From Bacteroidota bacterium (lineage in GTDB: Bacteria > Bacteroidota > Bacteroidia > AKYH767-A > OLB10), in assembly GCA_016717725.1 (NCBI GenBank), contig JADKFA010000001.1, forward strand, positions 67,219 through 131,218: DNA of 64,000 nucleotides, in the 5' to 3' direction. The notes beneath the pieces are model-generated. The model did not search any database. It had not been told where the DNA came from and saw only the letters and a list, made by a program, of their open reading frames with translations. A program made the position numbers and the translations under genes. Below, piece after piece: positions 33,480 to 59,367 of the stretch (position 1 is the first letter of the stretch; each line of letters begins with the position of its first letter).

Positions 33480-33694
33480 AATCACGCAAAATAATAACAT
33501 CCATAAGCGATATTGGGTGATATTAATCATATTTACGACTGAAATTTAGTATCTTCGAACAATTAGTCGTTTTCAAGACTTAAATCATAAAAAGAACTGA
33601 CATTCCTCCTTTTCTTCACAATCGGCTAGAAGTAGGTTTGCATCATAATAAAAGACATTCCACTCTTTTAATAAATAAAAAAAAAACAACCACT

Positions 33695-34159
33695 ATGAAA
33701 TTGAAAATTCTGATGGCAAGCATGCTGAGTATTTCTCTCTTTGCCTGCACCTCGAAACAAGAAGCTGAAGATGCTGCGAAAAATTCTCCTTCACCCGTTG
33801 AAGCTGCGGCTGAACAGCCAGAAGTACATGGAGTAGAAATAAAAGATCTTGAACTTACCAATCCACTAAATAAGGAGTGGATAACAAATGGCGAAAAAAT
33901 TTACGACAGCAAATGTTTGTCATGTCATAAGTTAACGGATGAAAAAGTAGTAGGTCCAGGCTGGAAAGGTGTCACTCAACGAAGAAAACCAATTTGGATT
34001 ATGAACATGATTTTAAATGTAGAAATAATGTTAGATGAAGATCCGGAAGCACAACTTTTACTTGAGCAATGTTTAATTCGTATGCCCAATCAAAACTTAA
34101 CTCATGATGAGGCTCGACAAGTAGTGGAGTTCATGCGTCACAACGATGGAGAAAAATAA
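33695..34159 (+). CDS. monoheme c-type cytochrome lipoprotein (nos-associated)
   Basis: Lipobox LFAC and CLSCH heme motif. It lies immediately upstream of nosZ and overlaps its extended ORF. Confidence 0.75.
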   Translation: MKLKILMASMLSISLFACTSKQEAEDAAKNSPSPVEAAAEQPEVHGVEIKDLELTNPLNKEWITNGEKIYDSKCLSCHKLTDEKVVGPGWKGVTQRRKPIWIMNMILNVEIMLDEDPEAQLLLEQCLIRMPNQNLTHDEARQVVEFMRHNDGEK

Positions 34160-34187
34160 AAAACTTAACCTAATTACAACTATATAT

Positions 34188-36185
34188 ATGAAAATCTATC
34201 ACTTAATTACGGCCACTGCAGTTCCGCTATTACTGCTCGCATTAACGGGATGTGCACCAAAAAATCCGACCCAAGCCATCACTGGCGATGCAGCAGAGAA
34301 AGTATATGTTGCTCCTGGAAAACACGATGCTTACTACAGTTTTGTTTCCGGTGGATTTAGTGGACAAGTATCGGTTTATGGACTTCCATCTGGAAGGCTA
34401 TTCCGTGTAATTCCGGTATTTTCTCAAGACCCTCAAACAGGTTGGGGATATTCGGAAGAAACGAAACCTATGTTGAATACATCACATGGTTTTACACCTT
34501 GGGACGACAGTCACCATATTGCATTGTCAACCACCAATGGTGAGCACGATGGCAAATGGGTTTTTATAAATGGGAATAACACCCCTCGAATTGCGAGAAT
34601 TAGCTTGAAAACATTTCGCACTGAAGAAGTCATTGAAATTCCAAATGCATCGGGAAACCACTCCTCCCCATTCCTAACTGAAAACTCAGAATATGCCGTT
34701 GCTGGTACTCGTTTTTCATTCCCGCTCGATTATGATGGAGAAACAGTTGACGTTCCGATTAATTCTTACAAAAAGAATTTTAAAGGCACCGTTTCTTTTG
34801 TAAGTATTAACAAAGAAAGTGGAAACATGGCTGTTGCGTTCCAACTGTTATTACCCGGAATCAACTTCGACTTATCAAGAGGTGGACGTGGTCCTTCTAA
34901 AGATTGGTTCTTCTTTAGTTGCTACAACACTGAATTAGCGAATACTTTGTTAGAGGTGAATGCATCTCAAAAGGACAAAGATTTTATTATGGCTGTAAAC
35001 TGGAAAAAAGCGGAACAATATATTGCTGCTGGAAAAGGAAAGAAGTTAAATGTAAACTATGCACATAATGTATATAGCGATGAAACCCACACCTCCACTT
35101 CTACCATGATAAAAGAAATCCTTGCACTTGATCCTATTGAGTTAAAAGACATCGTTTATTTTATGCCATGTCCAAAATCTCCTCATGGTTGTGATGTAGA
35201 TCCAAGTGGTAAGTATATTGTAGGATCTGGCAAATTAGCAGCACTTATTCCTGTATTCTCATTTGACAAAATGATAGCCGCCATTGCAGCGAAAAATTTC
35301 GAAGGAGAATTTGAAGGCATTCCCGTTTTAAAATACGAATCTGTTTTACATGGTGAAGTGAAGAAGCCAGGCTTAGGCCCTCTACATACAGAATTTGATG
35401 GAAAGGGATTTGCTTACACTTCTATGTTTGTATCCTCTGAAATTGTAAAATGGAATATTGAAAATTTAACTGTGGTGGATCGAGTTCCAACATACTATTC
35501 TATTGGCCATCTCAGTATACCCGGGGGTCCTACTGCTAAGCCACACGGTCAATATGTTATAGCTTACAATAAAATAACAAAAGATCGCTATTTACCAACT
35601 GGTCCTGAATTGACTCAATCGGCACAGATATATGATATCTCTGGTGAGAAAATGAAGTTACTTCTTGACTTTCCTACTATTGGCGAACCGCACTATGCAG
35701 AAGCATTACCCGCAAAATTGGTAGAGCCCAATAGTGTCAAATTCTTCAAAATTGAAGACAATAAGCATCCTTACGTTACTAAAAGCGAAAAAGAAGCGAA
35801 GGTTGTTCGTCAAGGCAATCAAGTACATGTGTATATGACATGCATTCGTTCACATTTTGTTCCAGATAATATTGAAGGAATTAAAATGGGAGATGTACTC
35901 TACTTCCACATTACAAATCTTGAGCAAGATTGGGATGTACCACATGGATTTGCAATTAAAGGTGCGAACAATGCTGAATTATTAATCATGCCAGGTGAGA
36001 CGGCTACATTAAAATGGAGTCCAGATCGTGTTGGAGTGAGTCCTATGTATTGCACAGATTTTTGCTCTGCTCTACATCAAGAAATGCAAGGTTATGTAAG
36101 AGTTTCTCCTGCTGGATCATCAACTCCATTGAAATGGAGCACGGGTGAAACACCAGAAGCAAATTTATCGGCTGATGTAAAATAA
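34188..36185 (+). CDS. nosZ: nitrous-oxide reductase, clade II (Sec/lipoprotein-type signal)
   Basis: The N-terminus MKIYHLITATAVPLLLLALTGC has no twin-arginine. His-rich propeller, and a C-terminal CuA motif HGF...CTDFCSALHQEM. Confidence 0.95.
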   Translation: MKIYHLITATAVPLLLLALTGCAPKNPTQAITGDAAEKVYVAPGKHDAYYSFVSGGFSGQVSVYGLPSGRLFRVIPVFSQDPQTGWGYSEETKPMLNTSHGFTPWDDSHHIALSTTNGEHDGKWVFINGNNTPRIARISLKTFRTEEVIEIPNASGNHSSPFLTENSEYAVAGTRFSFPLDYDGETVDVPINSYKKNFKGTVSFVSINKESGNMAVAFQLLLPGINFDLSRGGRGPSKDWFFFSCYNTELANTLLEVNASQKDKDFIMAVNWKKAEQYIAAGKGKKLNVNYAHNVYSDETHTSTSTMIKEILALDPIELKDIVYFMPCPKSPHGCDVDPSGKYIVGSGKLAALIPVFSFDKMIAAIAAKNFEGEFEGIPVLKYESVLHGEVKKPGLGPLHTEFDGKGFAYTSMFVSSEIVKWNIENLTVVDRVPTYYSIGHLSIPGGPTAKPHGQYVIAYNKITKDRYLPTGPELTQSAQIYDISGEKMKLLLDFPTIGEPHYAEALPAKLVEPNSVKFFKIEDNKHPYVTKSEKEAKVVRQGNQVHVYMTCIRSHFVPDNIEGIKMGDVLYFHITNLEQDWDVPHGFAIKGANNAELLIMPGETATLKWSPDRVGVSPMYCTDFCSALHQEMQGYVRVSPAGSSTPLKWSTGETPEANLSADVK

Positions 36186-36199
36186 TAAATTCTTCTGTG

Positions 36200-36229
36200 G
36201 GGGACTCATTGTATTGCCATTGAGTCCCC
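36200..36229 (+). terminator. Hairpin plus T-tract directly after nosZ (intra-operon terminator/attenuator candidate)
   Basis: ggggactca-N12-tgagtcccc followed by ttta. Confidence 0.5.
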
Positions 36230-36251
36230 TTTAGAAGAGAATTAAAAAACT

Positions 36252-37280
36252 ATGAAACCTATATCGAGAATTTTAATTGCCCTTTCATCTTTGTCAATGC
36301 TAGCCACTTTTTTTCTTCCGCTTTGGCAGATACAACTATGGGCACCTCAATATCCAGAGGGACTAAACATGAAAATTTGGCATAATCACTTAAGTGGAGC
36401 GTTCGATATTATCAATGGATTGAATCATTACATTGGAATGCGTTTGATTAAGGAGGAGATGTTCCCTGAATTGCAGTATATAGGTATTCTAATAGGTATT
36501 TATATTGCCATCGGTTTAATAGCTTCCATTTCAAATAAAGTAACAATGCTCAAAATTTATACCCTTACAGGTATCACTTATGGTGTTGCGGCACTCTATG
36601 ATTTTTACAGATGGGGATATGATTACGGACACAACTTAGATCCTCATGCGGCCATTCAAGTTCCTGGTATGAGCTATCAACCACCTGTTGTAGGATACAA
36701 AAACTTGCTCAACTTCACTGCTTACTCTGGTCCTGATCAAGGAGGATGGATCATCGTTATTGCAAGCATTGTTGCTTTGAGTGTATTAATTTATACTATT
36801 TGGTCAAACAAAAAATCAAAATTCAAATCAATATCAATCAATGTAAGTACGAGCGTAGTTCCCTTGGTTTCGATATTACTATTTAATGCCTGTAACTCAT
36901 CAGAACCAGCACCTATTCGACTAGGCAAAGATGAATGCACGCATTGTAAAATGATGATAACTGACCCTCGATTTGGTGCAGAAATCATTACAAAAACTAA
37001 CAAACTATATAAATTCGACGATGCAAATTGTTTAAATAATTACATCAAAAATAACGAAAAACTTCAATCGAAAATTAACCTTATCTATTTTGTGGATTAT
37101 GGGAATGAATCTAAATTTGTTTTAGCCCATCAAGCATTTTATCTTCAATCGGAAGAAATAAAAAGTCCTATGGGAAGTGCGGTTGCAGCCTTCAGTAACA
37201 AGAAACAACTTGCTGAAACCGCCTCCTCACTCTCACAAAGCAAAGCCCTCACTTGGAACGAGGCAAGTAAAGTATATTAA
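36252..37280 (+). CDS. nosL: fusion ORF: NosB-like integral membrane domain plus a NosL copper-chaperone domain
   Basis: The N-terminal ~190 aa has 4-5 TM segments. Then comes an internal lipobox-like LLFNAC, then the NosL signature CTHCKMMI..YKFDDANCL..SPMGS. Confidence 0.7.
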   Translation: MKPISRILIALSSLSMLATFFLPLWQIQLWAPQYPEGLNMKIWHNHLSGAFDIINGLNHYIGMRLIKEEMFPELQYIGILIGIYIAIGLIASISNKVTMLKIYTLTGITYGVAALYDFYRWGYDYGHNLDPHAAIQVPGMSYQPPVVGYKNLLNFTAYSGPDQGGWIIVIASIVALSVLIYTIWSNKKSKFKSISINVSTSVVPLVSILLFNACNSSEPAPIRLGKDECTHCKMMITDPRFGAEIITKTNKLYKFDDANCLNNYIKNNEKLQSKINLIYFVDYGNESKFVLAHQAFYLQSEEIKSPMGSAVAAFSNKKQLAETASSLSQSKALTWNEASKVY

Positions 37281-37284
37281 ATCC

Positions 37285-38562
37285 ATGAACAACAAGTACA
37301 GCATTCTTATTTTTATTCTGTTTGCATCCATCAAACTGAATGCTGCTGTACTTACTTGCGGCAACAAAACAAATTGTCAATACATTCAAAATGCCATAAA
37401 CGCTGCTTTTCCTTTTGACACCATTGAAGTTCAACCTGGGCATTACAAACAGGGAAATCTACTCATCACCAAACCGCTTTCACTGCTTGCAAATGGAGAG
37501 GTAATTCTTGATGGAAATTTTAATTGTGAAATTATTACTATTAAAAGTAATCATGTTTTTATTCGCGGGTTCTCTATAAAAAATAGTTCCAATTTGAGTA
37601 GCATTGATATTGCCGGAATCAAAGTTTTAGCTTGCCAGCATGTAACCATTGAAAACAATAAAGTTGAAAAATGTTCTTTTGGAATCTACTTATCAAATAC
37701 CACACATTGCAAAGTGCAAAACAATTTTATTTCAGGAAATGTATTATCCGAAACTAATATTGGAAATGGTATTCACTGTTGGAAAGCAGATAGTAACTCC
37801 ATTGAAAACAATGAGGTGACAAATCAACGTGATGGAATTTACTTTGAATTTGTTACAAACACAACGATTAACAAAAACTTTTCACATCATAATTTAAGAT
37901 ATGGATTGCACTTCATGTTCTCTCACTCCAATACTTATACAAACAATAAATTTTCTAATAATGGTGCTGGAGTTGCTGTGATGTACTCTCACCATGTTAC
38001 CATGAAGAATAATCTATTCGAATATAACTGGGGAGCTAGTGCCTATGGCTTATTATTAAAGGAAATAAACGACAGTGAGATCACTGGAAACATATTTACC
38101 TATAACTCCGCTGCGATTTATATGGAAGGAAGTAACCGAGTAAATATGTCTCGCAATATATTCAGCAATAATGGCTGGGCTATGCGAATTCAATCTAGCT
38201 GTGTAGACAATATCATTGAACATAATAATTTCGTAGGAAATACATTTGATGTCTCCACGAACGGAGAAACACAACTCAGCAATTTCAATTCAAACTACTG
38301 GGATAAATACGAAGGTTATGATTTAAATCGAGATGGAGAAGGTGATATTCCATATCGTCCGGTAAGTCTTTTCTCTGTGATTGTTGAACAGCTTCCACCT
38401 TCTCTTTTATTATTGAGAAGCTTTATGGTTTACTTATTAGATAAGGCTGAAAAAATAATTCCTTCTTTGACTCCTGAATATTTAATTGATAACAAACCTG
38501 TCATTAAAATGATTGAACTAGACAACCAACCTATTGCAATTAGTAATACAAACAAAGAGTAA
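37285..38562 (+). CDS. nosD: nitrous oxide reductase maturation protein NosD (periplasmic beta-helix)
   Basis: Signal peptide MNNKYSILIFILFASIKLNA and repeated N.I..N parallel beta-helix repeats. The start was chosen at 37285 rather than the overlapping 37177. Confidence 0.85.
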   Translation: MNNKYSILIFILFASIKLNAAVLTCGNKTNCQYIQNAINAAFPFDTIEVQPGHYKQGNLLITKPLSLLANGEVILDGNFNCEIITIKSNHVFIRGFSIKNSSNLSSIDIAGIKVLACQHVTIENNKVEKCSFGIYLSNTTHCKVQNNFISGNVLSETNIGNGIHCWKADSNSIENNEVTNQRDGIYFEFVTNTTINKNFSHHNLRYGLHFMFSHSNTYTNNKFSNNGAGVAVMYSHHVTMKNNLFEYNWGASAYGLLLKEINDSEITGNIFTYNSAAIYMEGSNRVNMSRNIFSNNGWAMRIQSSCVDNIIEHNNFVGNTFDVSTNGETQLSNFNSNYWDKYEGYDLNRDGEGDIPYRPVSLFSVIVEQLPPSLLLLRSFMVYLLDKAEKIIPSLTPEYLIDNKPVIKMIELDNQPIAISNTNKE

Positions 38563-38588
38563 TCTAACCACTATTAACTTACAACAAA

Positions 38589-39164
38589 ATGAAAAAAAAC
38601 ATTGCTTCCATTTTCGTCATGGGTATTTCTATAGCATCCTTGACGCTTCTCAACAGTTGCGGTTCAAAAACTGAAGAGAGTACTACAACTCCGAGCACTG
38701 AAGAGACTACCGACCTGGGTGGACAGTCTGCCGTAAAGGATGATGACTCACAAAAGGACATTGTTAAAGTAGCATCTGAAAGTGCAGATCACACTACTTT
38801 AGTTGCCGCTATAAAAGCCGCTGAATATGTGGATGTGCTTAGCAACGCAGGTCCGTTTACCGTATTTGCCCCTACTAATGATGCATTCAACAAATTGCCT
38901 GAAGGCACCGTTGAAACATTAGTAAAACCTGAAAACAAAGATAAACTTCGTGATATTTTAGAATATCATGTAGCGGTAGCCGTGTATAAAACAGATATGT
39001 TTAAAGACGGACAAATAATTAACATGGCGAATTTAGGAAACGTAAAAATCACCATTAAGAACGGGGAAATATTCATCAATGAAAATGCAAAAATCATTGG
39101 TACCGTTCTCTCCTCCAATGGAATTATACATGTTGTTGACAACGTACTATTAGAAAAGAAATAA
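38589..39164 (+). CDS. fasciclin (FAS1) domain lipoprotein
   Basis: Lipobox LLNSC, plus FTVFAPTNDAF, H-box and NGIIHVVD motifs. Confidence 0.8.
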   Translation: MKKNIASIFVMGISIASLTLLNSCGSKTEESTTTPSTEETTDLGGQSAVKDDDSQKDIVKVASESADHTTLVAAIKAAEYVDVLSNAGPFTVFAPTNDAFNKLPEGTVETLVKPENKDKLRDILEYHVAVAVYKTDMFKDGQIINMANLGNVKITIKNGEIFINENAKIIGTVLSSNGIIHVVDNVLLEKK

Positions 39165-39166
39165 TT

Positions 39167-39886
39167 TTGATTGCATTTAAAAATATTAGTAAATCGTTTG
39201 GCAAAACAAAAATTCTAGACCAACTAAATCTAGAGCTTTTGAAAGGGCAATCCATTGCGCTTATTGGTCCAAATGGGTCTGGAAAAACAACATTAATTAA
39301 ATGTTTATTAGGATTAGTAGTTCCTACTTCGGGCGAAATACAAATTGACGGAGTAGATACGATTGGCACTTGGTTGCATCGCAGTAATATTGGATACATG
39401 CCTCAAATAGGACGGTATCCAGACAACATTACTGTGATGCAACTTTTTGAAATGATTAAAGAAGTTCGAAAAGATACATACACAAAGTTGGATGAAGAGT
39501 TACTTCATTCATTTGATATTTTCAAATTTGAAAATAAAACCATGCGCTCATTGAGCGGAGGAATGCGACAAAAAGTGAGCGCCTGCTTGGCATTTATGTT
39601 TGATCCAGAAATATTAATTCTAGACGAACCCACCGCAGGATTGGATCCCATCTCCTCAGAAATACTGAAAGAGAAATTAAAAAAGGAATTAAACAAAGGG
39701 AAACTTGTTCTCATCACTTCCCATATTTTAAGTGATCTGGAGGAACTAACTGATAAAATTATTTATCTCAATGAGGGTAAAATAGTTTTCTTCAAAAAAG
39801 TAGAAGAACTAAAATCTGAAACAGGGTCCATAAATTTATCAAAAACAATTGCGCGAATAATGGAGATGCAAAACAACCTTTCTTAG
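39167..39886 (+). CDS. nosF: ABC transporter ATP-binding protein NosF
   Basis: Walker A GPNGSGKT, signature LSGGMRQK and Walker B ILILDEP. Apparent TTG start 2 nt after the fasciclin stop. Confidence 0.8.
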   Translation: MIAFKNISKSFGKTKILDQLNLELLKGQSIALIGPNGSGKTTLIKCLLGLVVPTSGEIQIDGVDTIGTWLHRSNIGYMPQIGRYPDNITVMQLFEMIKEVRKDTYTKLDEELLHSFDIFKFENKTMRSLSGGMRQKVSACLAFMFDPEILILDEPTAGLDPISSEILKEKLKKELNKGKLVLITSHILSDLEELTDKIIYLNEGKIVFFKKVEELKSETGSINLSKTIARIMEMQNNLS

Positions 39887-40013
39887 AATATCAATGATGG
39901 AAATGCGTAAATTTGATAATAAGTTGGGGAATCGACATAGGAATCAGATAGAAGGTTCAGGAACTTTCGCATCCGCAATTTTATTAAAACATGAAGATCC
40001 GTCTACCATTAAA

Positions 40014-40883
40014 ATGAGAACTTCAACCAAGAAATATTTACTCCTTCGTTTACTAAAATATGTTTTGCTCGATATTTTAAAGAATAGAATGGTTCTTTTT
40101 TACACACTCTTTCTATTAGCTACGTCCTTAGGATTATTTAGCATGAGTGGTGATCCCACGAAAGGAATTGCAAGTCTACTTAATATAGTTCTCCTCGTTA
40201 GTCCGTTATTAAGTTTAATTTTTTCTACAATCTACTTTTACAATTCTTATGAGTTCATCGAGCTGTTGTCAGCTCAACCCATCCAAAGAAAAACTATTCT
40301 ATACAGTCAATATTGGGGGCTTTGTATTTCACTAATTGTAGCGCTGGTTATTGGACTTGGAATTCCACTATTAATTTTTGCTCCAGGGAAAGCTGCCCTT
40401 TCACTTCTTATCGTTTCTTGCGGACTCACCATGGCATTTGTTTCTTTAGCTTTACTTGCGGCGCTTCTCACAAGAGACAAAGCCAGAGGAATTGGATTAT
40501 CGCTACTTCTTTGGTTTTATTTTACGTTCATCTACGATGCTTTGATGCTGATGATCATGTTTGCCTACATTGATTATCCGATGGAAACACTTACGCTTAC
40601 TATGATCTCTTTAAATCCGATTGATTTAGCAAGAGTAATTGTATTATTGCAACTAGATGTATCCGCATTGATGGGATATACAGGAGCCATGCTTCAAGAT
40701 CTTTTTAGCAGTGGTAAAGGAGTTCTTTTAGCAAGCGGAGTGATGTTGATTTGGATATTAGCTCCTCTTAGATTAGCCATTAAACTTTTTAATAAAAGAG
40801 ATTTATGGAAAAAAATCCCTGAAGATGATAAGCACCTTCAGGGATTTTATTTTTTCTATCAAAAACAATTTTCATTGAATTGA
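40014..40883 (+). CDS. nosY: ABC-2 type permease NosY
   Basis: 6 TM segments, following nosF. The track ORF starts at 39894, but its first 40 aa are hydrophilic and atypical, so the start is uncertain. Confidence 0.7.
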   Translation: MRTSTKKYLLLRLLKYVLLDILKNRMVLFYTLFLLATSLGLFSMSGDPTKGIASLLNIVLLVSPLLSLIFSTIYFYNSYEFIELLSAQPIQRKTILYSQYWGLCISLIVALVIGLGIPLLIFAPGKAALSLLIVSCGLTMAFVSLALLAALLTRDKARGIGLSLLLWFYFTFIYDALMLMIMFAYIDYPMETLTLTMISLNPIDLARVIVLLQLDVSALMGYTGAMLQDLFSSGKGVLLASGVMLIWILAPLRLAIKLFNKRDLWKKIPEDDKHLQGFYFFYQKQFSLN

Positions 40884-40897: not shown

Positions 40898-42952
40898 TTA
40901 TCTCCCTTTAAATCTACATTTACCTTCTTCTAAATACTTTTTATAAGTATCTGCATCCGGTGTATATCCAACAGGTTTTGCTAGTAACTTACCTTGATGA
41001 TCGAGAAGTACATAATAGGGTTGCGAATTCGTTTGATAAATTCGACTCTGCATTTCGCTCCATTTATTTCCGGTTGTCTTCACTTTCTTATTTGTATAGG
41101 TGCTTACAAACTTTTTCGTCTCTGGCAATTCCGTTTTATCATCCACGTAAAGTGAAATTAATACATAATCTTCTGAAATTACTTTTAAGACGGCGGGTTG
41201 TGACCACACATTGTCTTCCATCTTACGGCAATTCACACAACTCCATCCCGTGAAATCTATCATCACGGGCTTACCCACTTGTTGCGCATAGGCCATCCCT
41301 TCCTCGTAATCGTGAAAGCAATTTAAATTATGCGGACATGTTCCTGCATGACTGCCACCTGCACTTGCTTCTGAGTCGGTGTTGGTCCACTCCTTGTAAA
41401 AATCGGGAGGTGGAAATCCGCTGATCGCTCTCAACGGTGCACCCCATAAACCTGGAATAAGATATACGGTAAATGACAATGTAATAATGGCTACAATCAA
41501 TCGACCTGTACCTAAATGATGCATGTCGCTATCATGAGAAAATTTCAATTTTCCTAAAAGATATAAACCCATCAAGCCAAAAATAACAATCCATATCGCG
41601 ATAAACACTTCACGTTTTAACAATCCCCAATGGTATGCCAAATCTACGTTCGATAAAAATTTCATTGCCAATGCTAACTCTAAAAATCCCAATACCACTT
41701 TCACCGAATTCAACCATCCACCCGATTTAGGAAGTGTATTGAGCCAACCTGGAAAAGCAGCAAACAATCCGAAGGGCAATGCCAATGCTAGTGCAAAGCC
41801 AGTCATTCCCATGATAGGTCCGAGGTAAGACGAGCCTCGGGCTGCTTCCACCAACAAAGTGCCGATGATAGGTCCAGTACAGGAGAAAGAAACCAAGCTT
41901 AATGTAAATGCCATAAAGAAAATTCCAACTAAGCCGCCTTTATCAGAAGCTTGATCTGCTTTATTGACCCATGATGATGGCAATGTAATTTCGAATGCAC
42001 CGAAGAATGATAAAGCAAAAATGAAAAAGATAACAAAGAACAACATATTAAAAAACACATTACTTGCCATCGCATTCAGCGCATCGGAACCAAGCGTAAC
42101 CGTGACTAAAAACCCAAGGATCACATAAATTAAAATTATGGATGTAGAATAAATAATTGCATTTGCTATTCCTTTTTGACGTGTTGGACTTCTCTTCGTA
42201 AAAAAACTTACGGTAAGTGGTATCATAGGAAATACGCATGGAGTGAGCAAGGCTAGTAAACCGCCAAGCATTCCAGCAATAAAAATTCCCCAATATGATT
42301 TATCATCTTCCACAATAATTCCATCACCACAACCTGCTTCCAAATGAGAAGCGTCGCTACTGGGTTCAGGAATACGACCATTCGCCAATTTTTCATCAAC
42401 AGGAATTGTAGTCGTCACTTCCGCTGATGAGTCAACTGGAAGAGGATTACTCGCTTCCACATCCACAACAGGAGTTACTTCTTCAACCTTATTTCCTTTA
42501 ATAGAAAGCGAAAAAGAAGTATCGGCATAAACACAAGCTTTATCATCACAAATCTGATACTCGATATTTCCTTCGACCTTAAAACTATTTTGATTATTCA
42601 ATTTAATTTTCTGTGTGAAAACCGGAGTTCCGCTAAACGACCAAACATCCACTTCAAAAACATCGTCAAAATCAACATGTGGTTTTCCTTCAGCCGTTTT
42701 ACCTACAAGTGTAAAATTTTTACTTTTCTCAAAACTGATCACCGTTGGAGAAGGTCCACCCGGAGGTGTGTTTTGCGAATAGATATGAAAACCTTTCGGC
42801 ACATTTGCTTTAATGGTAACGATGGCTTCATCCGTTTTCTGTTCGATGGAGAAATTCCATTTTACACTATTCTGAATTTGAGCACTTGCGGTTAAGAAGT
42901 TAACCAGAAAAAATAGGAAGATGAGTGGGGAATATAATTTACTACTTTTCAT
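40898..42952 (-). CDS. dsbD: thiol:disulfide interchange protein DsbD (N-terminal domain, CcdA-like TM core, C-terminal thioredoxin)
   Basis: Signal peptide, TM core with [10 protein letters not shown] and SCTGP, and a C-terminal WCVNC thioredoxin motif. Confidence 0.85.
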
Positions 42953-43033
42953 ACAGTTCAATAAATCGATAGGAGTCTCAAAGATAAGGAAAGGAGTTAA
43001 ACGGAATAGATCGTTTTTATTGCTCTAAAACGT

Positions 43034-43669
43034 TCATTTTGAACTGTCTTTAATATAGAAATAGGATACTTTCTCTTCCACATCATCAAATGTTACGGGG
43101 TCTTTATCCCAAAAAGTATAGAAATAACTCACGAGAGCGAAGTCGCCCGAGCATCCGGCAGTATGCATAAAAAGAGCGCCCATCCAAATAAAAAACTGAG
43201 AAGCAGGTGCTAAAAAAATGACTAGAATTAACGCAGAATTTATGACCACAAACGGAGCCAATGCAATAAACATAAAGGGCACTTTATACGTAACAAATTT
43301 ATCGGCCATTGCATAAAAAATAAATTTTTTCCAAACCGCTTTATAACTTACTTTGTTTGCACCCGCACATCGATACACAAACCCATGTATTAATTCATGA
43401 ATGGGAACTAATAAAAAAAAGAGCGCAATGCCAAGCGAGAACTCTGATACATGTTTCATAAAAGCTCCTGAGTTTATTAAACTATAGACCGAAATCACAA
43501 GCAATGAAAGTGAAAAAATTCCATAGAACATCATCACTAGATTTCTTCTAAAAAAATAAGGTTTGATGAAATCAGCTATTTCGGTATGGGTTAAGGTAGA
43601 TTGAAGGGTGTAGCCTTCGGTTTCCAGTTGGTGGTGATTTAAGGAATTGCTCATAGTTAGAAATAACAA
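43034..43669 (-). CDS. DUF3267-like membrane protein (putative zincin, HELIH motif)
   Basis: HELIHG motif within a polytopic membrane protein. Confidence 0.5.
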   Translation of the reverse strand: MLFLTMSNSLNHHQLETEGYTLQSTLTHTEIADFIKPYFFRRNLVMMFYGIFSLSLLVISVYSLINSGAFMKHVSEFSLGIALFFLLVPIHELIHGFVYRCAGANKVSYKAVWKKFIFYAMADKFVTYKVPFMFIALAPFVVINSALILVIFLAPASQFFIWMGALFMHTAGCSGDFALVSYFYTFWDKDPVTFDDVEEKVSYFYIKDSSK

Positions 43670-43764
43670 TCATGAAATTTAATAGTTTCAAAACTAATAA
43701 TGTTTTGAAGCAAACAAAAATAACTCATATATTTTTTATCTTCGTCTGACTAAAATCAAAAGCA

Positions 43765-44301
43765 ATGGATGTTCAAGACCCCCGCTACCCTATCGGCAAA
43801 TATTTGCCTCAGGCAGACTTTACAAAAGAAGTGATGGAAAACTGGCTAGCCATCATTGCTGCACTGCCGACACAATTAGACTTGGCTATTAAAAATCTGA
43901 ATGATGATCAGCTCGATACTCCCTATCGTGATGGTGGCTGGACTGTTCGACAGGTGGTACATCATGTTGCCGATAGTCATATGAACGCCTATATTCGATT
44001 TAAACTCGCATTAACAGAAGAGAATCCCACTATTAAACCTTATCAAGAAGAACGTTGGGCAGAACTCGCCGATTCAAAATATGGAACTCTGGAAGATTCA
44101 CTTATGTTGTTAAAAGTACTACATAGTAAATGGAGTCATGTAATGCAAAATATGTCGGACGAAGAATGGGATCGTACTTTTACGCACCCACAGTACAATC
44201 GTGTATCCACCTTGAAATTCAATCTCGGACTCTACGCTTGGCATAGTCAACATCACACGGCGCATATTACGCATTTGCGGAGTCGTAAAGGATGGATTTA
44301 G
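43765..44301 (+). CDS. YfiT/DinB-family metal-dependent (bacillithiol-transferase-like) protein
   Basis: RYPIGKY start and the His triad VVHHVADSH .. HSQHHTAHI. Confidence 0.7.
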   Translation: MDVQDPRYPIGKYLPQADFTKEVMENWLAIIAALPTQLDLAIKNLNDDQLDTPYRDGGWTVRQVVHHVADSHMNAYIRFKLALTEENPTIKPYQEERWAELADSKYGTLEDSLMLLKVLHSKWSHVMQNMSDEEWDRTFTHPQYNRVSTLKFNLGLYAWHSQHHTAHITHLRSRKGWI

Positions 44302-44352
44302 GTTTGATAGTGTTTGTTGGAGGGATATAGTTTTTTGCTTCGGATGTTGTAG

Positions 44353-44432
44353 GATGCTCGATGCTCGATGCTCGTCCCGATAGCTATCGGGACTCGATGC
44401 TCGATACTCGATATTGGTCGCGAAGCCTCGCA
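44353..44432. repeat. GC-rich palindromic repeat module: (gatgctc)n - gtcccgatagctatcgggac - (tcgatgc)n - tcgcgaagcctcgc
   Basis: Read directly. The same core palindromes recur at 50310-50327 and 50353-50396, and partially at 1287-1301. Confidence 0.6.
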
Positions 44433-44482
44433 ACTGGATGCTGGATTGCAAATTATAGGCTTCAAGATACTAATTGTTAGCT

Positions 44483-44553
44483 AACCCAGAATGGGTGACA
44501 TTATTATAACGAAATGCATCTTTCGATCATAAACCCAGAATGGGTGACATTAT
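44483..44553. repeat. Two direct copies of a 22-bp element (aacccagaatgggtgacattat), 49 bp apart, upstream of the 35-bp array
   Basis: The copies are at 44483-44504 and 44532-44553. Each contains the inverted repeat accca-gaa-tgggt. Confidence 0.7.
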
Positions 44554-44689
44554 GGATTTATAATACAAACGAAAATTTATTTGTTGATTTAAGATTCTAT
44601 TACCTTCCAAATCTTCGATTACAATTATACCTTTTTATTTCACCCTTTCAGGGTTTCTATCTGATGATTCTTGACTTTTCTATAATAAT

Positions 44690-45900
44690 TTCATCCCTAC
44701 GGGATTATAGAGCGATTCAATTAATTTCATTCTTCTGGATTAAGAGCAGGTTTAATTAATTTCATCCTTCGGGATTATAGAGCGATTCAATTAATTTCAT
44801 TCTTCTGGATTAAGAGCAGGTTTAATTAATTTCATCCTTCGGGATTATAGAGTGATTCAATTAATTTCATCCTTCGGGATTATAGAGCGATGCAATTAAT
44901 TTCATTCTTCTGGATTAAGAGCAGGTTTAATTAATTTCATCCTTCGGGATTATAGAGCGATTCAATTAATTTCATTCTTCTGGATTAAGAGCAGGTTTAA
45001 TTAATTTCATCCTTCGGGATTATAGAGTGATTCAATTAATTTCATTCTTCTGGATTAAGAGCAGGTTTAATTAATTTCATCCTTCGGGATTATAGAGTGA
45101 TTCAATTAATTTCATCCTTCTGGATTAAGAGCAGGTTTAATTAATTTCATCCTGCGGGATTATAGAGTGATTCAATTAATTTCATTCTTCGGGATTATAG
45201 AGCGATTCAATTAATTTCATCCTTCTGGATTAAAAGCAGGTTTAATTAATTTCATCCTTCGGGATTAAAAGCAGGTTTAATTAATTTCATCCTTCGGGAT
45301 TAAAAGCAGGTTTAATTAATTTCATCCTTCGGGATTAAAAGCAGGTTTAATTAATTTCATCCTTCGGGATTATAGAGCGATTCAATTAATTTCATCCTTC
45401 GGGATTAAGAACAGGTTCAATTAATTTCATCCTTCGGGATTATAGATTGATTCAATTAATTTCATTCTTCGGGATTATAGAGCGATTCAATTAATTTCAT
45501 CCTTCGGGATTAAAAGCAGGTTTAATTAATTTCATCCTTCGGGATTATAGAGTGATTCAATTAATTTCATTCTTCGGGATTAAAAGCAGGTTTAATTAAT
45601 TTCATCCTTCGGGATTAAAAGCAGGTTTAATTAATTTCATCCTTCGGGATTAAAAGCAGGTTTAATTAATTTCATCCTACGGGATTATAGAGCGATTCAA
45701 TTAATTTCATCCTTCGGGATTAAAAGCAGGTTTAATTAATTTCATCCTTCGGGATAATAGAGCGATTCAATTAATTTCATTCTTCGGGATTAAAGCAGGT
45801 TTAATTAATTTCATCCTTCGGGATTATAGAGCGATTCAATTAATTTCATCCTTCGGGATTAAAAGCAGGTTTAATTAATTTCATTACTTAGGGATTATTC
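44690..45900. repeat. Non-coding tandem array of about 35 copies of a 35-bp unit, in two interleaved subtypes
   Basis: The unit core is AATTAATTTCAT(C/T)CTTC(G/T)GGATTA. The tail is either TAGAG(C/T)GATTC or A(A/G)AGCAGGTTT. The period is 35 (checked at 44761/44796/44831). Stops occur in all frames. Confidence 0.9.
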
Positions 45901-45913
45901 ATGCGAACATTTC

Positions 45914-46969
45914 TTACTCATACCGCAATCGATGAATCAAATAGATTAACGCGGCGAAGAGGAAGAAAGCAAATGCCTGGTGCAGCACACCCAACACAAT
46001 GGGAACACTGAATAAAAGTGTAACTATTCCCAATAAAACTTGACCAAATATGCCCTCCATCAAAATATATACAGCTCGTTTTTGCGAACGATGTAAGGTG
46101 GGCATTTTGAAAATTTTTATCATGAAAACAATTGTAAATATCGTGAGTATGTAGGCTAATCCACGATGTATAAATTGCATACTTGCTAAATTATTTATTA
46201 AAGAAGAAATTCCATCTTTTTGAAATGAATAGCCTATCGCTTCAGGCACCCAATCGTCGTACATTTTAGGCCATGTATTGTAAATCAGTCCTGCTTTAGA
46301 ACCCGCGACAAAAGCACCATAGATAATTTGCAAAGTGAGTAACCCCAATAATATTTTAGCTGCCTTTCTGAACTTCGTTACTTCTCTACCGTTACCCGCC
46401 TTCCGATCGAAGAGCTGAGTAAGTGCTACCCAAAAGATATATCCGAACGTAATGAATGCAAAGGTGAGATGGATCGCCAAGCGGATATGACTTACACGTA
46501 CATTTTGAGTAAGTCCGCTCGACACCATATACCATCCTAAAAAGCCTTGCAAGCCTCCCAGCACGAACATAAATAATAATTTAGGTAACAACTCCACCGT
46601 AATCGCTTTCCTCCACAAAAAGTAAATCAACCCAAACAAAAACACAACGCCAATGAGTCGACCAAACAATCGATGTATAAACTCCCAGAAATAAATAAAT
46701 TTAAAATCCGCTAATTCGAAATGTGAATTTTGCTGTTGATATTGCGGAATCTGCTTGTACTTTTCAAATGCCTCTAGCCATTGCGCTTCGTTTAATGGAG
46801 GAATACTTCCGCTAATCACTTTCCATTCGGTGATTGATAATCCAGAACCCGTGAGTCGAGTGATCCCTCCAACTACCACCATGCCGAATACTAAAAAACA
46901 TCCGGTGAAAAGCCACAGCAACACTTGACTTTTATACTTTTCTGAATGAATACTGCTTAATACTTCCAC
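45914..46969 (-). CDS. ctaA: heme A synthase (COX15/CtaA family)
   Basis: 8 TM segments with conserved His in TM helices (HR..G, H pairs), 351 aa. Confidence 0.8.
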   Translation of the reverse strand: MEVLSSIHSEKYKSQVLLWLFTGCFLVFGMVVVGGITRLTGSGLSITEWKVISGSIPPLNEAQWLEAFEKYKQIPQYQQQNSHFELADFKFIYFWEFIHRLFGRLIGVVFLFGLIYFLWRKAITVELLPKLLFMFVLGGLQGFLGWYMVSSGLTQNVRVSHIRLAIHLTFAFITFGYIFWVALTQLFDRKAGNGREVTKFRKAAKILLGLLTLQIIYGAFVAGSKAGLIYNTWPKMYDDWVPEAIGYSFQKDGISSLINNLASMQFIHRGLAYILTIFTIVFMIKIFKMPTLHRSQKRAVYILMEGIFGQVLLGIVTLLFSVPIVLGVLHQAFAFFLFAALIYLIHRLRYE

Positions 46970-48748: not shown

Positions 48749-48883
48749 GGCTGCAAAAGTAAATCATTCTAGCCCTTATACCGTCACTAGTTATAAAATA
48801 GTCCGATTGATTAAACAAGTTAATGTGGCAACAAAAAATAGTGGACTAATCTCTTCATCCAATTGGTATTAATTGATCATAAA

Positions 48884-49662
48884 ATGAAACTACATTATAG
48901 AATTATCGGCGAAGGAAATCCAGTTCTCCTTTTACATGGATTATTTGGCATGAGCGATAATTTACAAAGCTTTGGTCGTCAACTTGCTGAAAAAAACCAC
49001 CAAGTGATCATCGTTGACCTTAGAAACCACGGACAATCGCCTCATGATTCCAACCATTCTTATCAACTTATGGCAGATGATATCGTGGAATTGCTAGCAG
49101 AATTAAGATTGACCAAAGTGGACATTATTGGGCATAGCATGGGCGGGAAAGTGGTATTAAAACTACTAAACTCCCACGCTGATAAAATAAATAAAGCCGT
49201 TGTTATAGATATTGCTCCTTGGTTTTATCCTATACATCATCGTGAAATTTTAGATGCTTTACTGTCGATTGACTTAAGCGTAATTCGTACACGCAAAGAA
49301 GCGGAAAGAGCATTAGCAGAAAACATCAAAGACCAAGGAACCCTTTTCTTCTTACTTAAAAATTTATATTGGGAAAAACCAGAACAGTTAGCATGGCGAT
49401 TTAATTTACAATCGATCAATCAACACATAAAAAAATAGGTGAAGAGACATGGCCCGATAAAATTATTGTTACTCCCATCCTTTTCGTAAGAGGAGAAAAA
49501 TCCAATTACATCGATCCCTATCGCATGAATGAAATTTTAAAATGGTTTCCGAATGCTGAATTTGCTGAAATAAAAAATTCAGGTCATTGGGTGCATGCGG
49601 AGCAGCCGATGGCATTGTTGGATGTGGTAGATGAATATATATCCCCATTGTCTCGGGACTAA
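48884..49662 (+). pseudogene. alpha/beta hydrolase, with one frameshift in an A7 run at ~49426-49432
   Basis: HGLFG oxyanion motif, GHSMGG nucleophile elbow, and a downstream frame with GHWVHAEQP. Adding one A restores HIKKIGEETWPDK. Confidence 0.75.
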
Positions 49663-50274: not shown

Positions 50275-50447
50275 TAATTCAGAATGTAGAATTCAGAATT
50301 CAGAATTGTGTCCCGATAGCTATCGGGATGTGAATTGTGAATTGTGTATCGAGTCGCGAGGCTTCGCGATAAGTATTCTGATCGCGAAGCCTCGCGACTG
50401 AATTCTTAATTCTGCATTCTTAATTCTGCATTCTTAATTCTGAATTC
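50275..50447. repeat. Nested palindromic/low-complexity repeat block (gaattca/gaattgt words, tcccgatagctatcggga, and a 19-bp inverted repeat built on tcgcgaggcttcgcga / tcgcgaagcctcgcga)
   Basis: Read directly. The outer arms (cagaattcagaatt .. aattctgaattc) are also mutually complementary. Confidence 0.65.
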
Positions 50448-50861
50448 TTAAAACGGCAAATCTCCACCTAAATCAGTATGCGGCGGTGTTGGATCGGTTG
50501 TCCCCGCGTCATTCGATCCATTTTGAGCATCGCGCTTGCTTAACATGGTCATATTTTCTGCTATAATTTCGGTGGCATAGCGCTTAATACCATCTTTCTC
50601 CCAACTTCTCGTGCGCAACTTACCTTCTATAAAAACCATATGTCCTTTACGCAGGTGTAACTTCTCAGCTGCCTCGGCAAGTCCACGCCATAAAACAATA
50701 TTATGCCATTCCGTTTGATCCTGACGATTGCCGTCTTTATTCTTAAAATACTCGGTGGTAGCCAATGGAAACTTAGCCACCATAATTCCGCCTTCCATGT
50801 GACGAAATTCGGGATCCTTACCTAAATTACCAATCAGAAATACTTTGTTTACACCAGACAT
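50448..50861 (-). CDS. ssb: single-stranded DNA-binding protein
   Basis: OB-fold N-terminus (NKVFLIGNLGKDPE) and an acidic DLPF-type tail (GGDLPF). Confidence 0.9.
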   Translation of the reverse strand: MSGVNKVFLIGNLGKDPEFRHMEGGIMVAKFPLATTEYFKNKDGNRQDQTEWHNIVLWRGLAEAAEKLHLRKGHMVFIEGKLRTRSWEKDGIKRYATEIIAENMTMLSKRDAQNGSNDAGTTDPTPPHTDLGGDLPF

Positions 50862-57125: not shown

Positions 57126-57429
57126 ATGGACAGTTTAGGAAGCACGATAAAACAACTCAGAGAGAAACAAGAACTGCCTTTACGGACAGTAGCTGCTTTT
57201 CTTGATATTGACCAAGCAGTTCTCAGCAAAATAGAGCACGGACATCGTAAGGCAACCCGTGAACAAGTGCAACAACTTGCAAAGTATTTTAAAGCAGACG
57301 AAGATGAATTGATTGTTGCATGGTTAAGCGACAAGTTAGCTCACAGGTAAACAAGACGAAGATTTATCAAAGCAAGCATTGAAAGCAGCTGAAAAAAAGG
57401 TTGACTTTTTAAAAAAGAAAACGAAATGA
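57126..57429 (+). pseudogene. XRE-family HTH regulator (controller-like), with one frameshift near 57345
   Basis: HTH is LPLRTVAAFLDIDQAVLSKIEHG. The tail GKQDEDLSKQALKAAEKKVDFLKKKTK reads in another frame. Its stop overlaps the mod ATG (ATGA). Confidence 0.65.
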
Positions 57430-59367
57430 CAAGCGAATCATTAAACATAACAAAAGACAATTTGGACAAACTCCAAACTCTTTTCCCCGACATTTTTTCA
57501 GAGGGCAAAATTGATATGGAAAAGTTCAAAGCAACTTTTTCTGACGACATCAATTTTGCAAATGAAAGATATGTGTTGAACTGGGCTGGTAAATCCGATG
57601 CATTCAAAGTGTTGCAGATTCCGACAACCGCTACGCTGAGACCACAACCCGAACAATCCATCTACTTTGACACAACCGAAAATGTTTTTATTGAAGGAGA
57701 GAATTTAGAAGTGCTGAAAGTGTTGCAGAAAAGTTACTACAACAAAGTAAAGTGCATTATTATTGACCCGCCATACAATACAGGAAACGACAGCTTTATT
57801 TATCCAGACAGTTTCAAAGAGAGTAAAGCCGAATATGAAAAACGTATTGGCGACAAAGACGAAGAAGGATATTTAATGAAAGAAGGTTTGTTCCGAAAGA
57901 ACAGCAAAGACAGCGGACACTACCACAGCAATTGGTTAAGCATGATGTATCCCCGTTTGTTCTTGGCAAAAAATTTATTGAGAGATGAAGGAGTTATTTT
58001 CGTTCACATAGATGATAATGAAGTTCACAACCTTCGGTTATTGATGAATGAAATTTTCGGCGAGGAGAATTTTGTAGCTTCCTTTTTATGGGAAAAAAGG
58101 ACAAATAGGGAAAATCGCAAAGTAGTTTCTATAAGGCACGACTATATATTATGCTATTCAAATTGCAATGGATGTTGGAAGACCTATCAACCAAAGCTCC
58201 AATGACTGAAAAAGCATTGTCAAATTATAAGAATCCTGACAATGACCATCGAGGTTTATGGAAATCAGACCCTGCAACAGCGCAAGCAGGACACGGGACT
58301 ACCTCTCAATTTTATGAGCTGATTGCACCAAATGGAAAAGTTCATCAACTCGAAAGTGGAAGATGTTGGCTTTATACTAAAGCAGTTATGAATGAAGCTA
58401 TAAAAGATAATAGAATCTGGTTTGGTAAGGATGGGAATGGAGTGCCGCGTGTTAAAACCTATTTGGATGCAAAGGAAAGAGGATTAACACCTGAATCAAT
58501 ATTATTTGCTGAAGATGTTGGAACCACAGAATCTGCTAAAAATCAATTAAAAGAGTTGTTTAATGGTATAGCTGTTTTGAGACTCTAAATCAGTTGGGTT
58601 AATAAATAAGCTTTTTGCAGATGGGTGCAAATGAAGGTATTGTTTTAGACTTCTTTGCAGGTTCAGGAAGTACTGCCCACGCAGTAATGGATTTAAACGC
58701 ATCAGATGGCGGTAATAGAAAATACATTTGCGTTCAACTCCCTGAATTATGCGATGCAAGCAGTGAAGCTTACAAAGCAGGATATAAATCTATTGTCGAA
58801 ATAAGTAAAGAACGATTACGTAGAGCAAACAAGAAAATTCAAGAAGAAATCAACTCAGAAATCAATAAGATAGAAGCCGAAATCGTAAAACTACAAAGCG
58901 AACTCCCTACAGATGAAAACAAAGCAGAAATTGAAAGTCTGAAAAATACTATAGTTCAGTTAAAAAATCAAGATTTAGGTTTCAAAGTTTTTAAACTTTC
59001 ACCTTCTAACTTTAAAGTATGGCGAGGGGATGAAATCACTGAAGAAAATTTGGTAACTCAATTGGATGCTTTCAACAATCCGGTAAAAGCGGAAAGCAAA
59101 AATGAAAACATGCTTTACGAGCTATTGATTAAAGTAGGTTACTTAATTGCCGACAAAGTTGAGGCGAAAGAAGAATACTTTTCAATAAAAGACGGTGAAA
59201 TGATTATTGCATTGGAAGAAATGAATCCGCAAATCATTGACACCATCATAAAAGCACAACCAAAAAAGGTAATAACCCTTGACAATCTTTTCACAGGCAA
59301 CGACCAACTGAAAACAAATACAGTGTTGCAAATGAAAGATGCAGGCATTGATTTTAAAACGATTTAA
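57426..59367 (+). pseudogene. mod: Type III R-M DNA methyltransferase (Mod, beta-class N6-adenine), with about 4 frameshifts
   Basis: Motif IV IIIDPPYNTG precedes motif I VLDFFAGSGSTAHAV. The breaks are at ~58165 and three within 58565-58625. Confidence 0.85.

Follow-up and report, generated by a model that had tools for sequence, protein, structure and literature searches.

The 35-bp tandem array that lies beside ctaA in the window, by which we mean the whole 64,000-nucleotide stretch of DNA that was analysed, is probably a lineage-specific minisatellite that expanded from a REP/BIME-like hairpin cluster, and we put the probability of this reading at roughly 0.6. The array units are decayed versions of a short hairpin element, and the array looks like neither a purpose-built UUCG-hairpin RNA nor a protein-binding array. 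The features of the locus are given below in window coordinates; bit scores are those of R1, the covariance model of the hairpin family, and L numbers are the fetched loci.

43765-44301, + strand: DinB_2-family (YfiT-like) gene (Pfam DinB_2, E 2e-21), convergent with ctaA
44474-44506, - strand: founder h1, of the h2 sequence type and in direct repeat with h2 (34.8 bits)
44523-44555, - strand: founder h2, ATAATGTC-ACCCA-TTC-TGGGT-T (35 bits)
44598-44718, + strand: conserved non-coding leader block, made up of about 40 nt followed by h3, 29 nt of spacer and unit 0
44632-44664, + strand: founder h3, TTTTTATTTC-ACCCT-TTC-AGGGT-TTCTATC (40.8 bits), equal to the family consensus
44684-44718, + strand: founder unit 0, AATAATTTC-ATCCC-TAC-GGGAT-TATAGAGCGATTC, with an intact 5-bp stem and a 3-nt loop (predicted -4.8 kcal/mol)
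44719-45872, + strand: 33 amplified units of 35 bp each, one of them 34 bp, in 15 sequence types
45873-45907, + strand: degenerate terminal unit (AATTAATTTCATTACTTAGGGATTATTCATGCGAA) that adjoins ctaA, with orthologous degenerate last units in L001, L002 and L007
45914-46969, - strand: ctaA (haem A synthase; Pfam COX15-CtaA, E 3.4e-106), its stop codon 6 nt from the last unit

The array consists of 35 head-to-tail units of 35 bp each that span positions 44684-45907. TRF reported a single array at 44686-45897 (period 35, 34.6 copies, 85% matches, score 1625), and the anchor AATTAATTTCAT was found 34 times from 44719 to 45873 at a spacing of 35 bp throughout, except for one 34-bp unit at 45769 where one A is gone from an A4 run; a partial first unit at 44684 stands ahead of the anchor series. 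An earlier note on this DNA had described about 35 copies of a 35-bp unit, and the TRF result and the 34 regularly spaced anchors bear this out. When up to two mismatches were allowed, the 24-nt core matched 33 times compared to 0 expected from shuffles, and it was found nowhere else in the 64 kb. The statement that every unit keeps this core holds for most units but is slightly overstated, as units 45139, 45664 and 45734 and the two edge units deviate. The amplified units carry one of two tail forms, A (TAGAGYGATTC) or B (ARAGCAGGTTT), and the order of these along the array, ABABAABABABABAABBBBABAABABBBABABAB, agrees with the earlier description of forms that alternate at first and then become irregular. 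The hairpin in the amplified units is ATCC-TTCG-GGAT or weaker, which is a reduced form, and all the variants that had been pointed out were found, namely the TGCG loop in unit 45139, the TACG loop in unit 45664, the TTCT loop in 7 units and the stem C-to-T change in 8 units. That the array is non-coding was also confirmed, since all six frames carry stops and the longest open stretch is 57 codons. An 81-codon ORF at 44514-44759 that runs into the array was rejected as spurious, since gene calling gives nothing at the corresponding site of either L002 or L007. The convergent setting described earlier stands, with Pfam DinB_2 (+) and COX15/CtaA (-) on the two sides of the array, and on the strand with the conserved foot the units are antisense to ctaA. 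The gap of 14 nt that had been given between the ctaA stop codon and the array is 6 nt when it is measured to the last degenerate unit, the figure being dependent on where the array is taken to end.

The element from which the units derive has a foot, (T)AT(T/G)TC, followed by a 5-bp stem with a GC core, a 3-nt loop and a trailing T, and the hairpin of the array unit, ATCC-TTCG-GGAT, differs from the family hairpin ATCCC-TTC-GGGAT by the loss of one C. R1 was trained on dispersed copies, with the amplified array units left out, and it matched 26 of these units at 14.5-22.6 bits, each time on the + strand, and next to nothing besides them in the 64 kb. We therefore hold with high confidence that the array unit belongs to this hairpin family, whose copies within the 64 kb are found by R1 at the ctaA locus only. 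In the family stems, four of the five pairs show double changes and 98.6% of the cells are paired, these being instances that had been preselected by a complementarity filter; in an unbiased count, a perfect hairpin with a 5-bp stem and a 3-nt loop follows 25 of 914 feet, where 1.5 were expected and none of 1000 shuffles gave more than 7. Conservation across the dispersed family is highest in the foot (A6, T7 and C10 at 90% or more). Each of the 33 instances checked, from the window and 10 loci, falls outside the ORFs of 90 codons or more and thus is intergenic. The founder 22-mer TATTTCACCCTTTCAGGGTTTC turns up in six unrelated metagenome contigs as well, in every case in an intergenic position and with stem-covarying copies close by. 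L011 has 12 copies or more, which are found in two intergenic regions of 13 kb. The clusters in L008 and L011 have copies in both orientations, and the order in the window according to R1 is h1(-), h2(-), h3(+) and then the units (+). The founders presumably act as single-strand hairpins, either RNA or ssDNA, that are recognised via the foot. A search of the literature for a described hairpin repeat of Flavobacteria or Bacteroidetes found none, a search by sequence strings gave unrelated primer matches only, and a metagenome scan with the 24-nt core gave no matches.

Four intact founder copies lie just upstream of the amplified units, h1 and h2 being inverted and h3 and unit 0 being direct. 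The orthologue of h2 in L002 and L005 has the stem ACCCC/GGGGT, which is a compensatory change. The h3 22-mer is identical in L001, L002, L007 and the six unrelated metagenome contigs, and unit 0, which scores 34.8 bits with R1 though it is part of the training set, is conserved in L001, L002 and L007. The leader block is 87.3% identical to that of L007 (over 110 nt) and 86.3% identical to that of L002 (over 95 nt), whereas 4-fold degenerate sites of the neighbouring genes are only 43-52% identical in the same species pairs. Because the block is so much better conserved than these sites, the comparison shows that the founder block is under purifying selection. The 97.7% identity of the leader to that of L001 was considered as a sign of selection and was rejected, as the 3' end of ctaA is also 96.9% identical.

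The number of units was 35 in the window, 7 in L001, 4 in L002, 5 in L007 and 0 in five other relatives (L003-L006, L014 and L015 are listed), bearing in mind that short-read contigs, that of L001 included, may have collapsed the array and that the 35 copies rest on a single assembly with frameshift-type errors elsewhere. L002 and L007, relatives with CtaA 85-90% identical, have the same founders h3 and unit 0 as the window, and their few array units have diverged. The AATTAATT palindrome is not kept in the orthologous units of these two loci and is replaced by TAATTATT, TAATAAAT, ATAAAATT and similar sequences. L001 is an independent short-read contig from another sample that is 97% identical in the array segment, and its flanks and unit types match those in the window. 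The 3 kb to the left of the leader is only 74-90% identical to L001, which rules out that L001 is simply the same species; since the right part is about 97% identical and the left 3 kb is not, L001 is recombinant or chimeric at about 44,460.

The hairpins of the amplified units are weaker than those of the founders in the folding model: the predicted energies are -4.8 to -5.1 kcal/mol for the founders, -3.2 for the main unit and -0.5 to -2.2 for unit types b, h and m. The TTCT loop, which is found in seven units, carries no energy penalty in the model. The UNCG tetraloop on which the earlier note had laid stress thus deserves no special weight, as the hairpin is the family hairpin minus one C, is weaker, and has TTCT variants that are not penalised. 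Single units and blocks of four units (140 nt) fold no better than their shuffles on both strands (z from -0.41 to +1.03). A count of pairs within the array gave no double change and a single one-sided C-to-U change, the same as in the shuffles, and hence this count has no power. No Rfam family matched the window or the related loci at the gathering score or at relaxed thresholds, and with folding at the shuffled level the proposal of a long structured ncRNA is not supported. The sole sub-threshold Rfam match was a chance miRNA, E 0.91.

The arrangement of the units points to how the array grew. In the first 13 units the identity is 91.7% at a lag of 70 compared to 71.7% at a lag of 35, and there is an exact repeat of 153 bp at a lag of 175. 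Degenerate units stand at the edges, where they are orthologous across species, and the interior is homogenised. A probable sequence of events is that the ancestral state, as seen in two relatives, was a small BIME-like cluster at the 3' end of ctaA with one or two inverted copies, the consensus h3, the direct unit 0 and three or four diverged direct copies, and that in the lineage of the window a copy that had lost one stem C was amplified to about 33 copies. The piece that was duplicated, repeatedly and head to tail, would be one hairpin copy together with about 22 nt of flank, and growth would likely have occurred by replication slippage and unequal recombination between neighbours, with one, two (70 bp) or five (175 bp) units added at a time. 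Tandem reiteration of REPs together with flanking DNA has already been described (PMC3733652). We infer that the copy number has no dedicated function; we are less sure that the expanded part is without a function of its own than that its units belong to the family. Among the roles that had been listed for the array, a hypervariable satellite fits best, with copies going from 35 to 7, 4-5 and 0 and with the 70-bp and 175-bp duplications. Minisatellites and VNTRs, e.g. mycobacterial MIRU, likewise consist of intergenic non-coding tandem units of tens of bp, vary in copy number among related genomes and have degenerate edges, a homogenised interior and higher-order duplications. They differ in that the unit here comes from a conserved hairpin family with selected founders, in that 35 copies is unusually high and in that two unit forms alternate.

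The cluster resembles REP/BIME elements of E. coli and Pseudomonas (PMC3733652) in several ways: the hairpin is short and extragenic and has a conserved single-stranded foot next to its stem; the stems covary from copy to copy, although at 4-5 bp they are shorter here than in classical REPs; the clusters mix inverted and direct copies, with a copy and its flank reiterated in tandem; and the location is at the 3' ends of genes. It is unlike them in that the REP foot is GT[AG]G or CGTC while here it is (T)AT(T/G)TC, conserved but different, in that all the copies in the 64 kb are at one locus, so that dispersal within this genome is putative, and in that no RAYT gene was found within the 64-kb window or the fetched loci. 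If the minisatellite reading is true, the array would be mostly of local interest as a very long REP-like cluster, arranged head to tail, from an uncultured lineage of Bacteroidota, as a contig-breaking and probably strain-variable locus that could be a typing marker, and as an example of a selected hairpin element seeding a minisatellite. BIME clusters of E. coli have about a dozen REPs, and a purely head-to-tail array of 35 copies is far longer. The founder foot and hairpin would be the more useful by-product: the motif is conserved despite saturated synonymous sites, recurs in unrelated contigs, has no match in Rfam 15 and is not in the REP tables examined. Finding its recogniser, which might be a transposase, nuclease or RNA-binding protein, could give a Bacteroidota counterpart to REP/RAYT.

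An unlikely alternative, though one that has to be taken seriously, is that the array acts at the level of the transcript, being part of overlapping 3' UTRs of the DinB-family gene and ctaA or of a small RNA from the leader, where a string of weak hairpins would slow or terminate transcription, insulate the two genes or shield 3' ends from exonucleases. REP elements in E. coli give such protection of 3' ends. The array begins 6 nt past the ctaA stop codon with no strong terminator between, the founder block is under purifying selection, and h3 is terminator-like on the + strand, being the only element flagged by the terminator scan (44642-44654, +). The orientation of the foot strand suits ctaA-sense transcripts in h1 and h2 and DinB-sense transcripts in h3 and the units, and sense copies of the family lie 10-90 nt past stop codons in L011 (2098, 3054, 5594) and L012 (1227). 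However, other copies are located upstream of genes or run antisense to both of their neighbours (L008 3926, L011 5280, L013 6034 and all of those in L007), the unit hairpins are weak and have no U-tract after them, no array unit was flagged by the intrinsic terminator criterion of a GC-rich stem of at least 5 bp and a U-tract, the hairpins in sense orientation are far from the genes that they would terminate, and five relatives are without any such units. A sigma-70-type promoter scan gave no site within the array and a total lower than the shuffle mean, and by eye there was no Bacteroidota-type -7 TAnnTTTG motif in the leader.

It is more doubtful that the founders are an undescribed class of selected, sequence-specific non-coding element in Bacteroidota, defined by the 22-mer TATTTCACCCTTTCAGGGTTTC that unrelated contigs share, and either a substrate of a Y1 REP-type enzyme or a hairpin for an RNA- or ssDNA-binding factor, and that the array is a non-neutral, high-valency sink or platform for it. 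The array as a sink or platform for a factor that reads the foot would explain why the foot is invariant across units. Unit positions 1-12 (AATTAATTTCAT) are invariant in 32 of 32 full units while 13 of the remaining 23 columns vary, which gives a hypergeometric p of about 8e-4 on the assumption of independent and equally mutable columns, and of about 0.01 when the A/B dimorphism is left out. This invariance speaks against the minisatellite reading, in that it hints at constraint, or else at a duplication mechanism that requires the foot.

We consider it very unlikely that the array was grown, instead of by slippage, by a Y1 HUH (RAYT-like) enzyme that is encoded elsewhere in the genome and that took the units as REP-type substrates and copied them head to tail, and we likewise give low credence to mobilisation of the hairpin family by a REP-type transposase. 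RAYT genes are usually single-copy. A conserved foot beside a short hairpin is the recognition logic of REP/RAYT, the consensus 22-mer that is identical in unrelated contigs suggests mobility, and the foot is invariant within the array. According to PMC6006769, RAYT subclass 2.6 of Bacteroidetes has atypical REPs that are without GTAG and have weaker structure, but those listed have stems of 8-10 bp and different sequences, and none of them resembles the element described here. Neither the window nor the fetched related loci contained an ORF with HUH/Y motifs, and segmental duplications of 70 bp and 175 bp are the product of recombination or slippage.

Hardly more credible is a DNA-level array in which 35 phased units form a centromere-, iteron- or nucleoid-type platform for a putative protein that reads AATTAATTTCAT or the stem palindrome. 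It would fit the 12-nt segment that stays the same while hairpin and tail vary, and the foot that is also the best conserved part of the dispersed family, and there is a superficial likeness to centromeres of the sopC type. The sopC of the F plasmid is 12 x 43 bp, and arrays of this kind and iterons are, like the one here, direct tandem repeats of about 35-43 bp with a short inverted repeat in each. Here, however, the context is chromosomal, with ordinary housekeeping genes around the array according to Pfam and without partition or replication genes: Pfam scans of 60 ORFs across the 64-kb window found no cas, rep, par, reverse transcriptase or Y1 transposase, BLAST against plasmids and phages gave no matches, and neither the 24-nt core nor the h3 22-mer matched in the viral contigs scanned. 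The number of units is labile, with 0-7 in close relatives, the covarying stems fit a single-strand hairpin and not one duplex-binding specificity, and, as AATTAATT is not conserved when the units of relatives are compared with their orthologues here, an old DNA-binding site, a role that the earlier note had proposed, is not supported. Likenesses of the TTTCAC and loop sequences to parS and to an anticodon arm were dropped, as they are too short to have meaning. CRISPR arrays share evenly spaced, partly palindromic repeats and an upstream conserved 'leader' with this locus, but here there are no unique spacers, the 11-nt variable part having two forms only, the period is 35 bp and cas genes are absent, which upholds the earlier view that it is not CRISPR-like.

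The least probable explanation is that the array or its length was expanded by a long-read assembler, as might be thought from several frameshift-like split genes in the window, which are typical of uncorrected long-read assemblies, and from the A missing in the 34-bp unit; since L001, assembled independently from short reads of another sample, carries the same flanks and unit types, an artefact of one assembly does not account for the repeat, and the array has 17 distinct unit sequences in an ordered higher-order pattern, whereas an artefact is expected to yield uniform copies.

Tandem Repeats Finder returned one large tandem array at 44686-45897, with a period of 35, 34.6 copies, 85% matches and a score of 1625. 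The array holds 34 exact AATTAATTTCAT anchors from 44719 to 45873, spaced uniformly at 35 bp with the sole exception of a 34-bp unit at 45769, in which the A4 run is short of one A. When the whole window was scanned with the 24-nt unit core, 33 matches with at most two mismatches were found against 0 expected, and all were inside the array. The units comprise 17 distinct sequences, the two tail classes follow each other as ABABAABABABABAABBBBABAABABBBABABAB, and stop codons are abundant in all six reading frames. The array is real, and since these counts, the tail classes, the stops and the flanking genes all agree with it, the earlier note's description of a non-coding array of 35-bp units with two alternating tails between convergent genes is accurate. 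Four intact hairpins of the same type, which we call founders, lie immediately upstream of the amplified units. The features of the locus are as follows (coordinates, strand, feature).

43765-44301, +, DinB_2-family gene (Pfam), flanking the array
44474-44506, -, hairpin h1, ATAATGTC-ACCCA-TTC-TGGGT-T
44523-44555, -, hairpin h2, same sequence as h1
44632-44664, +, hairpin h3, TTATTTC-ACCCT-TTC-AGGGT-TTC
44684-44718, +, hairpin of unit 0, AATTTC-ATCCC-TAC-GGGAT-TA
44684, start of the partial first unit in the anchor series
45914-46969, -, COX15/CtaA gene (Pfam), flanking the array

The founders belong to a dispersed hairpin family made of a foot, (T)AT(T/G)TC, a 5-bp stem, a 3-nt loop and a trailing T. 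In an alignment of 28 copies, picked by a complementarity filter, double changes were present at 4 of the 5 stem pairs and 98.6% of cells were paired. Because of that filter, AT[TG]TC feet were also counted without it, and 25 of the 914 feet outside the array were followed by a perfect 5-bp/3-nt hairpin (expected 1.5, maximum 7 in 1000 shuffles). All 33 family instances are intergenic and occur in both orientations relative to neighbouring genes. The h1/h2 orthologue in two relatives, L002 and L005, has the stem ACCCC/GGGGT, a compensatory change. The h3 consensus 22-mer was identical in six unrelated metagenome contigs with GC contents of 35-52%, all of which carry more similar hairpins nearby (stems ACTCT, GTCCC, GTTCC, AGCCT, ACGCT and TCCCT). 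A covariance model trained on dispersed copies of the family matched 26 array units at 14.5-22.6 bits, on the + strand only, and elsewhere in the window gave two marginal matches only. These matches indicate that the array unit is a copy of the hairpin family. The unit's ATCC-TTCG-GGAT is ATCCC-TTC-GGGAT less one C, and the UUCG tetraloop proposed in the earlier note is thus a by-product of this deletion. One metagenome contig, L011, has a 1-kb intergenic region (2060-3116) in which 8 or more short GC-core hairpins are crowded (among them GTCCC-tac-GGGAC and GCTCC-ata-GGAGC) and a second spacer (5260-5610) with five family hairpins, two of them within a 100-bp x2 tandem repeat; its organism seems rich in the family.

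Eight further loci (L002-L007, L014 and L015) were reached through CtaA homologues. In L002 (CtaA 90%) 4 diverged units of 34-36 bp immediately follow ctaA, L007 (CtaA 85%) has 5 diverged units, and h3 and the first unit are common to the window and both of these. Compared with L002 or L007, the window's leader block, which contains h3 and unit 0 (44598-44718), keeps 86-87% identity over 95-110 nt, with both hairpins invariant, whereas in the neighbouring aspartokinase and GNAT genes the same comparisons gave only 43-52% at 4-fold degenerate sites and 57-71% at third codon positions. This difference from the 4-fold sites, together with the invariant hairpins, shows that the founders are under purifying selection, and 44598-44718 is a selected non-coding element. 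The amplified units have no comparable support. Their predicted hairpin energy is -3.2 kcal/mol versus -4.8 to -5.1 for the founders, and unit types b, h and m are predicted to be weaker still (-0.5 to -2.2 kcal/mol). On neither strand did single units or 140-nt blocks fold better than their shuffles, and the pair count within the array gave 0 compensatory changes, a value equal to that of its own shuffles. The ctaA spacers of L003-L006, L014 and L015 contain no array units and carry other repeats (GCGAGAAAAATT-type motifs, CTCTCCC...GGGAGAG palindromes, GGTCGCGAAGCCTCGCGA hairpins) or an IS element instead, the latter with an rve integrase in the ctaA-DinB spacer of L004. Repeats and insertions alike have a hotspot in this spacer.

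The unit core was found in a single GTDB species representative, the 3.7-kb short-read MAG contig L001, and had no match in JGI metagenomes, viral contigs, plasmids or phages. L001 has the window's layout of DinB gene, leader, array and ctaA end, with 7 units of the window's unit types. Over the span compared (window 41,380-46,040), identity is 74-90% across the 3 kb to the left of about 44,460, with the DsbD, DUF3267 and DinB genes, 97.7% in the leader and 96.9% in the final 127 nt of ctaA, and the units too are nearly identical. Selection as the cause of the high leader and unit identity is rejected, as the ctaA end is equally close and the left 3 kb are diverged. Since identity jumps to about 97% and the other relatives match the window at only about 79% over that end of ctaA, L001 is either recombinant or a chimera assembled by MEGAHIT, with its junction near 44,460. 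The junction adjoins a 7-bp microsatellite, CTCGAT[GA], 3' of the DinB-family gene (window 44353-44415, L001 about 640-740), which runs for about 14 uninterrupted 7-mers in L001 and is broken in the window by a 20-bp perfect palindrome, GTCCCGATAGCTATCGGGAC, at 44374-44393. A similar palindrome, TCCCGACAGCTATCGGGA, is present in the L004 ctaA spacer.

Across the first 13 units, identity at lag 70 is 91.7% and at lag 35 it is 71.7%; a five-unit duplication is evident from 153 bp repeated exactly at lag 175, and runs of identical B units occur in the later array. At the edges of the array the units are degenerate and have orthologues in other species, and inside it they are homogenised, a signature that points to satellite-like growth by slippage or unequal recombination. 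Unit positions 1-12, AATTAATTTCAT, do not vary in the 32 full units, whereas 13 of the other 23 columns do; the hairpin columns that vary are 13 (C24/T8), 16 and 18 (G25/T7). Calculated from the unit table with columns taken as independent and of equal mutability, p is about 8e-4 for this invariance, or about 0.01 leaving out the A/B dimorphism. This invariance could stem from lower mutability at A/T sites, from gene conversion, or from recognition of the foot by some mechanism or factor; in the dispersed family, too, no part is better conserved than the foot.

The closest known match is with REP/BIME-type repeats, which share the conserved foot beside a short extragenic hairpin, the covarying stems, the clusters of mixed orientation and the tandem reiteration together with flanking DNA that has been described for REPs (PMC3733652). 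Unlike them, the family has no GT[AG]G foot. Within the window its copies lie at this one locus, and no RAYT gene was seen there. Bacteroidetes RAYT subclass 2.6 reportedly uses atypical, weaker REPs, and the examples given are unlike this element (PMC6006769). We consider it likely, at a probability of roughly 0.6, that the array is a minisatellite grown out of a REP/BIME-like hairpin cluster, and the founder element is more noteworthy than the array itself. Operationally, the array also fits the definition of an intergenic VNTR. A plasmid-type centromere is rejected because the window has no partition or replication genes and the unit core is absent from plasmids and phages, membership of an Rfam 15 family because no family matched in the window, and a CRISPR array because the tails come in two forms and there are no cas genes in the window.

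Pfam scans of 60 ORFs in the window gave the gene content of an ordinary Bacteroidota chromosome (nos cluster, DsbD, aspartokinase, GldD, SSB, MutY, RNase G, T9SS sorting-domain proteins, one IS element and a few defence-like genes). Genes for Cas proteins, partition, replication, reverse transcriptase or Y1 transposase are absent; HUH/Y1 enzymes were not found by a motif search either, and no tRNA or Rfam family was found in the window. The nitrous-oxide reductase cluster spans 33,638-40,883 (cytochrome c, NosZ-type propeller, NosL, NosD, ABC ATPase and permease), the IS element, with a DDE_Tnp_1 transposase, 31,043-32,521, and a small defence-like group (N6/N4 DNA methylase, GmrSD_N, AAA_15/21 ATPase) 57,426-61,512. 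Several genes are apparently frameshift-split or truncated (4748-6056, 6364-8595, 60516-61512 and 48863-49438); photolyase, DPP-IV and the AAA_15/AAA_21 ATPase each occupy two ORFs, and an alpha/beta hydrolase has 191 aa where relatives have 254-262 aa. Indel errors in a long-read assembly typically leave such a pattern, and single-base details of the array such as the 34-bp unit are therefore to be read with care. Other short tandem repeats in the window separate gldD from ssb (7-bp and 14-bp repeats AATTCAG, AATTCTT and CTGAATTCTTAATT, 50276-50451) and the rlmN-like from the radA-like gene (TGTTGGA x5.4, 20169-20206).
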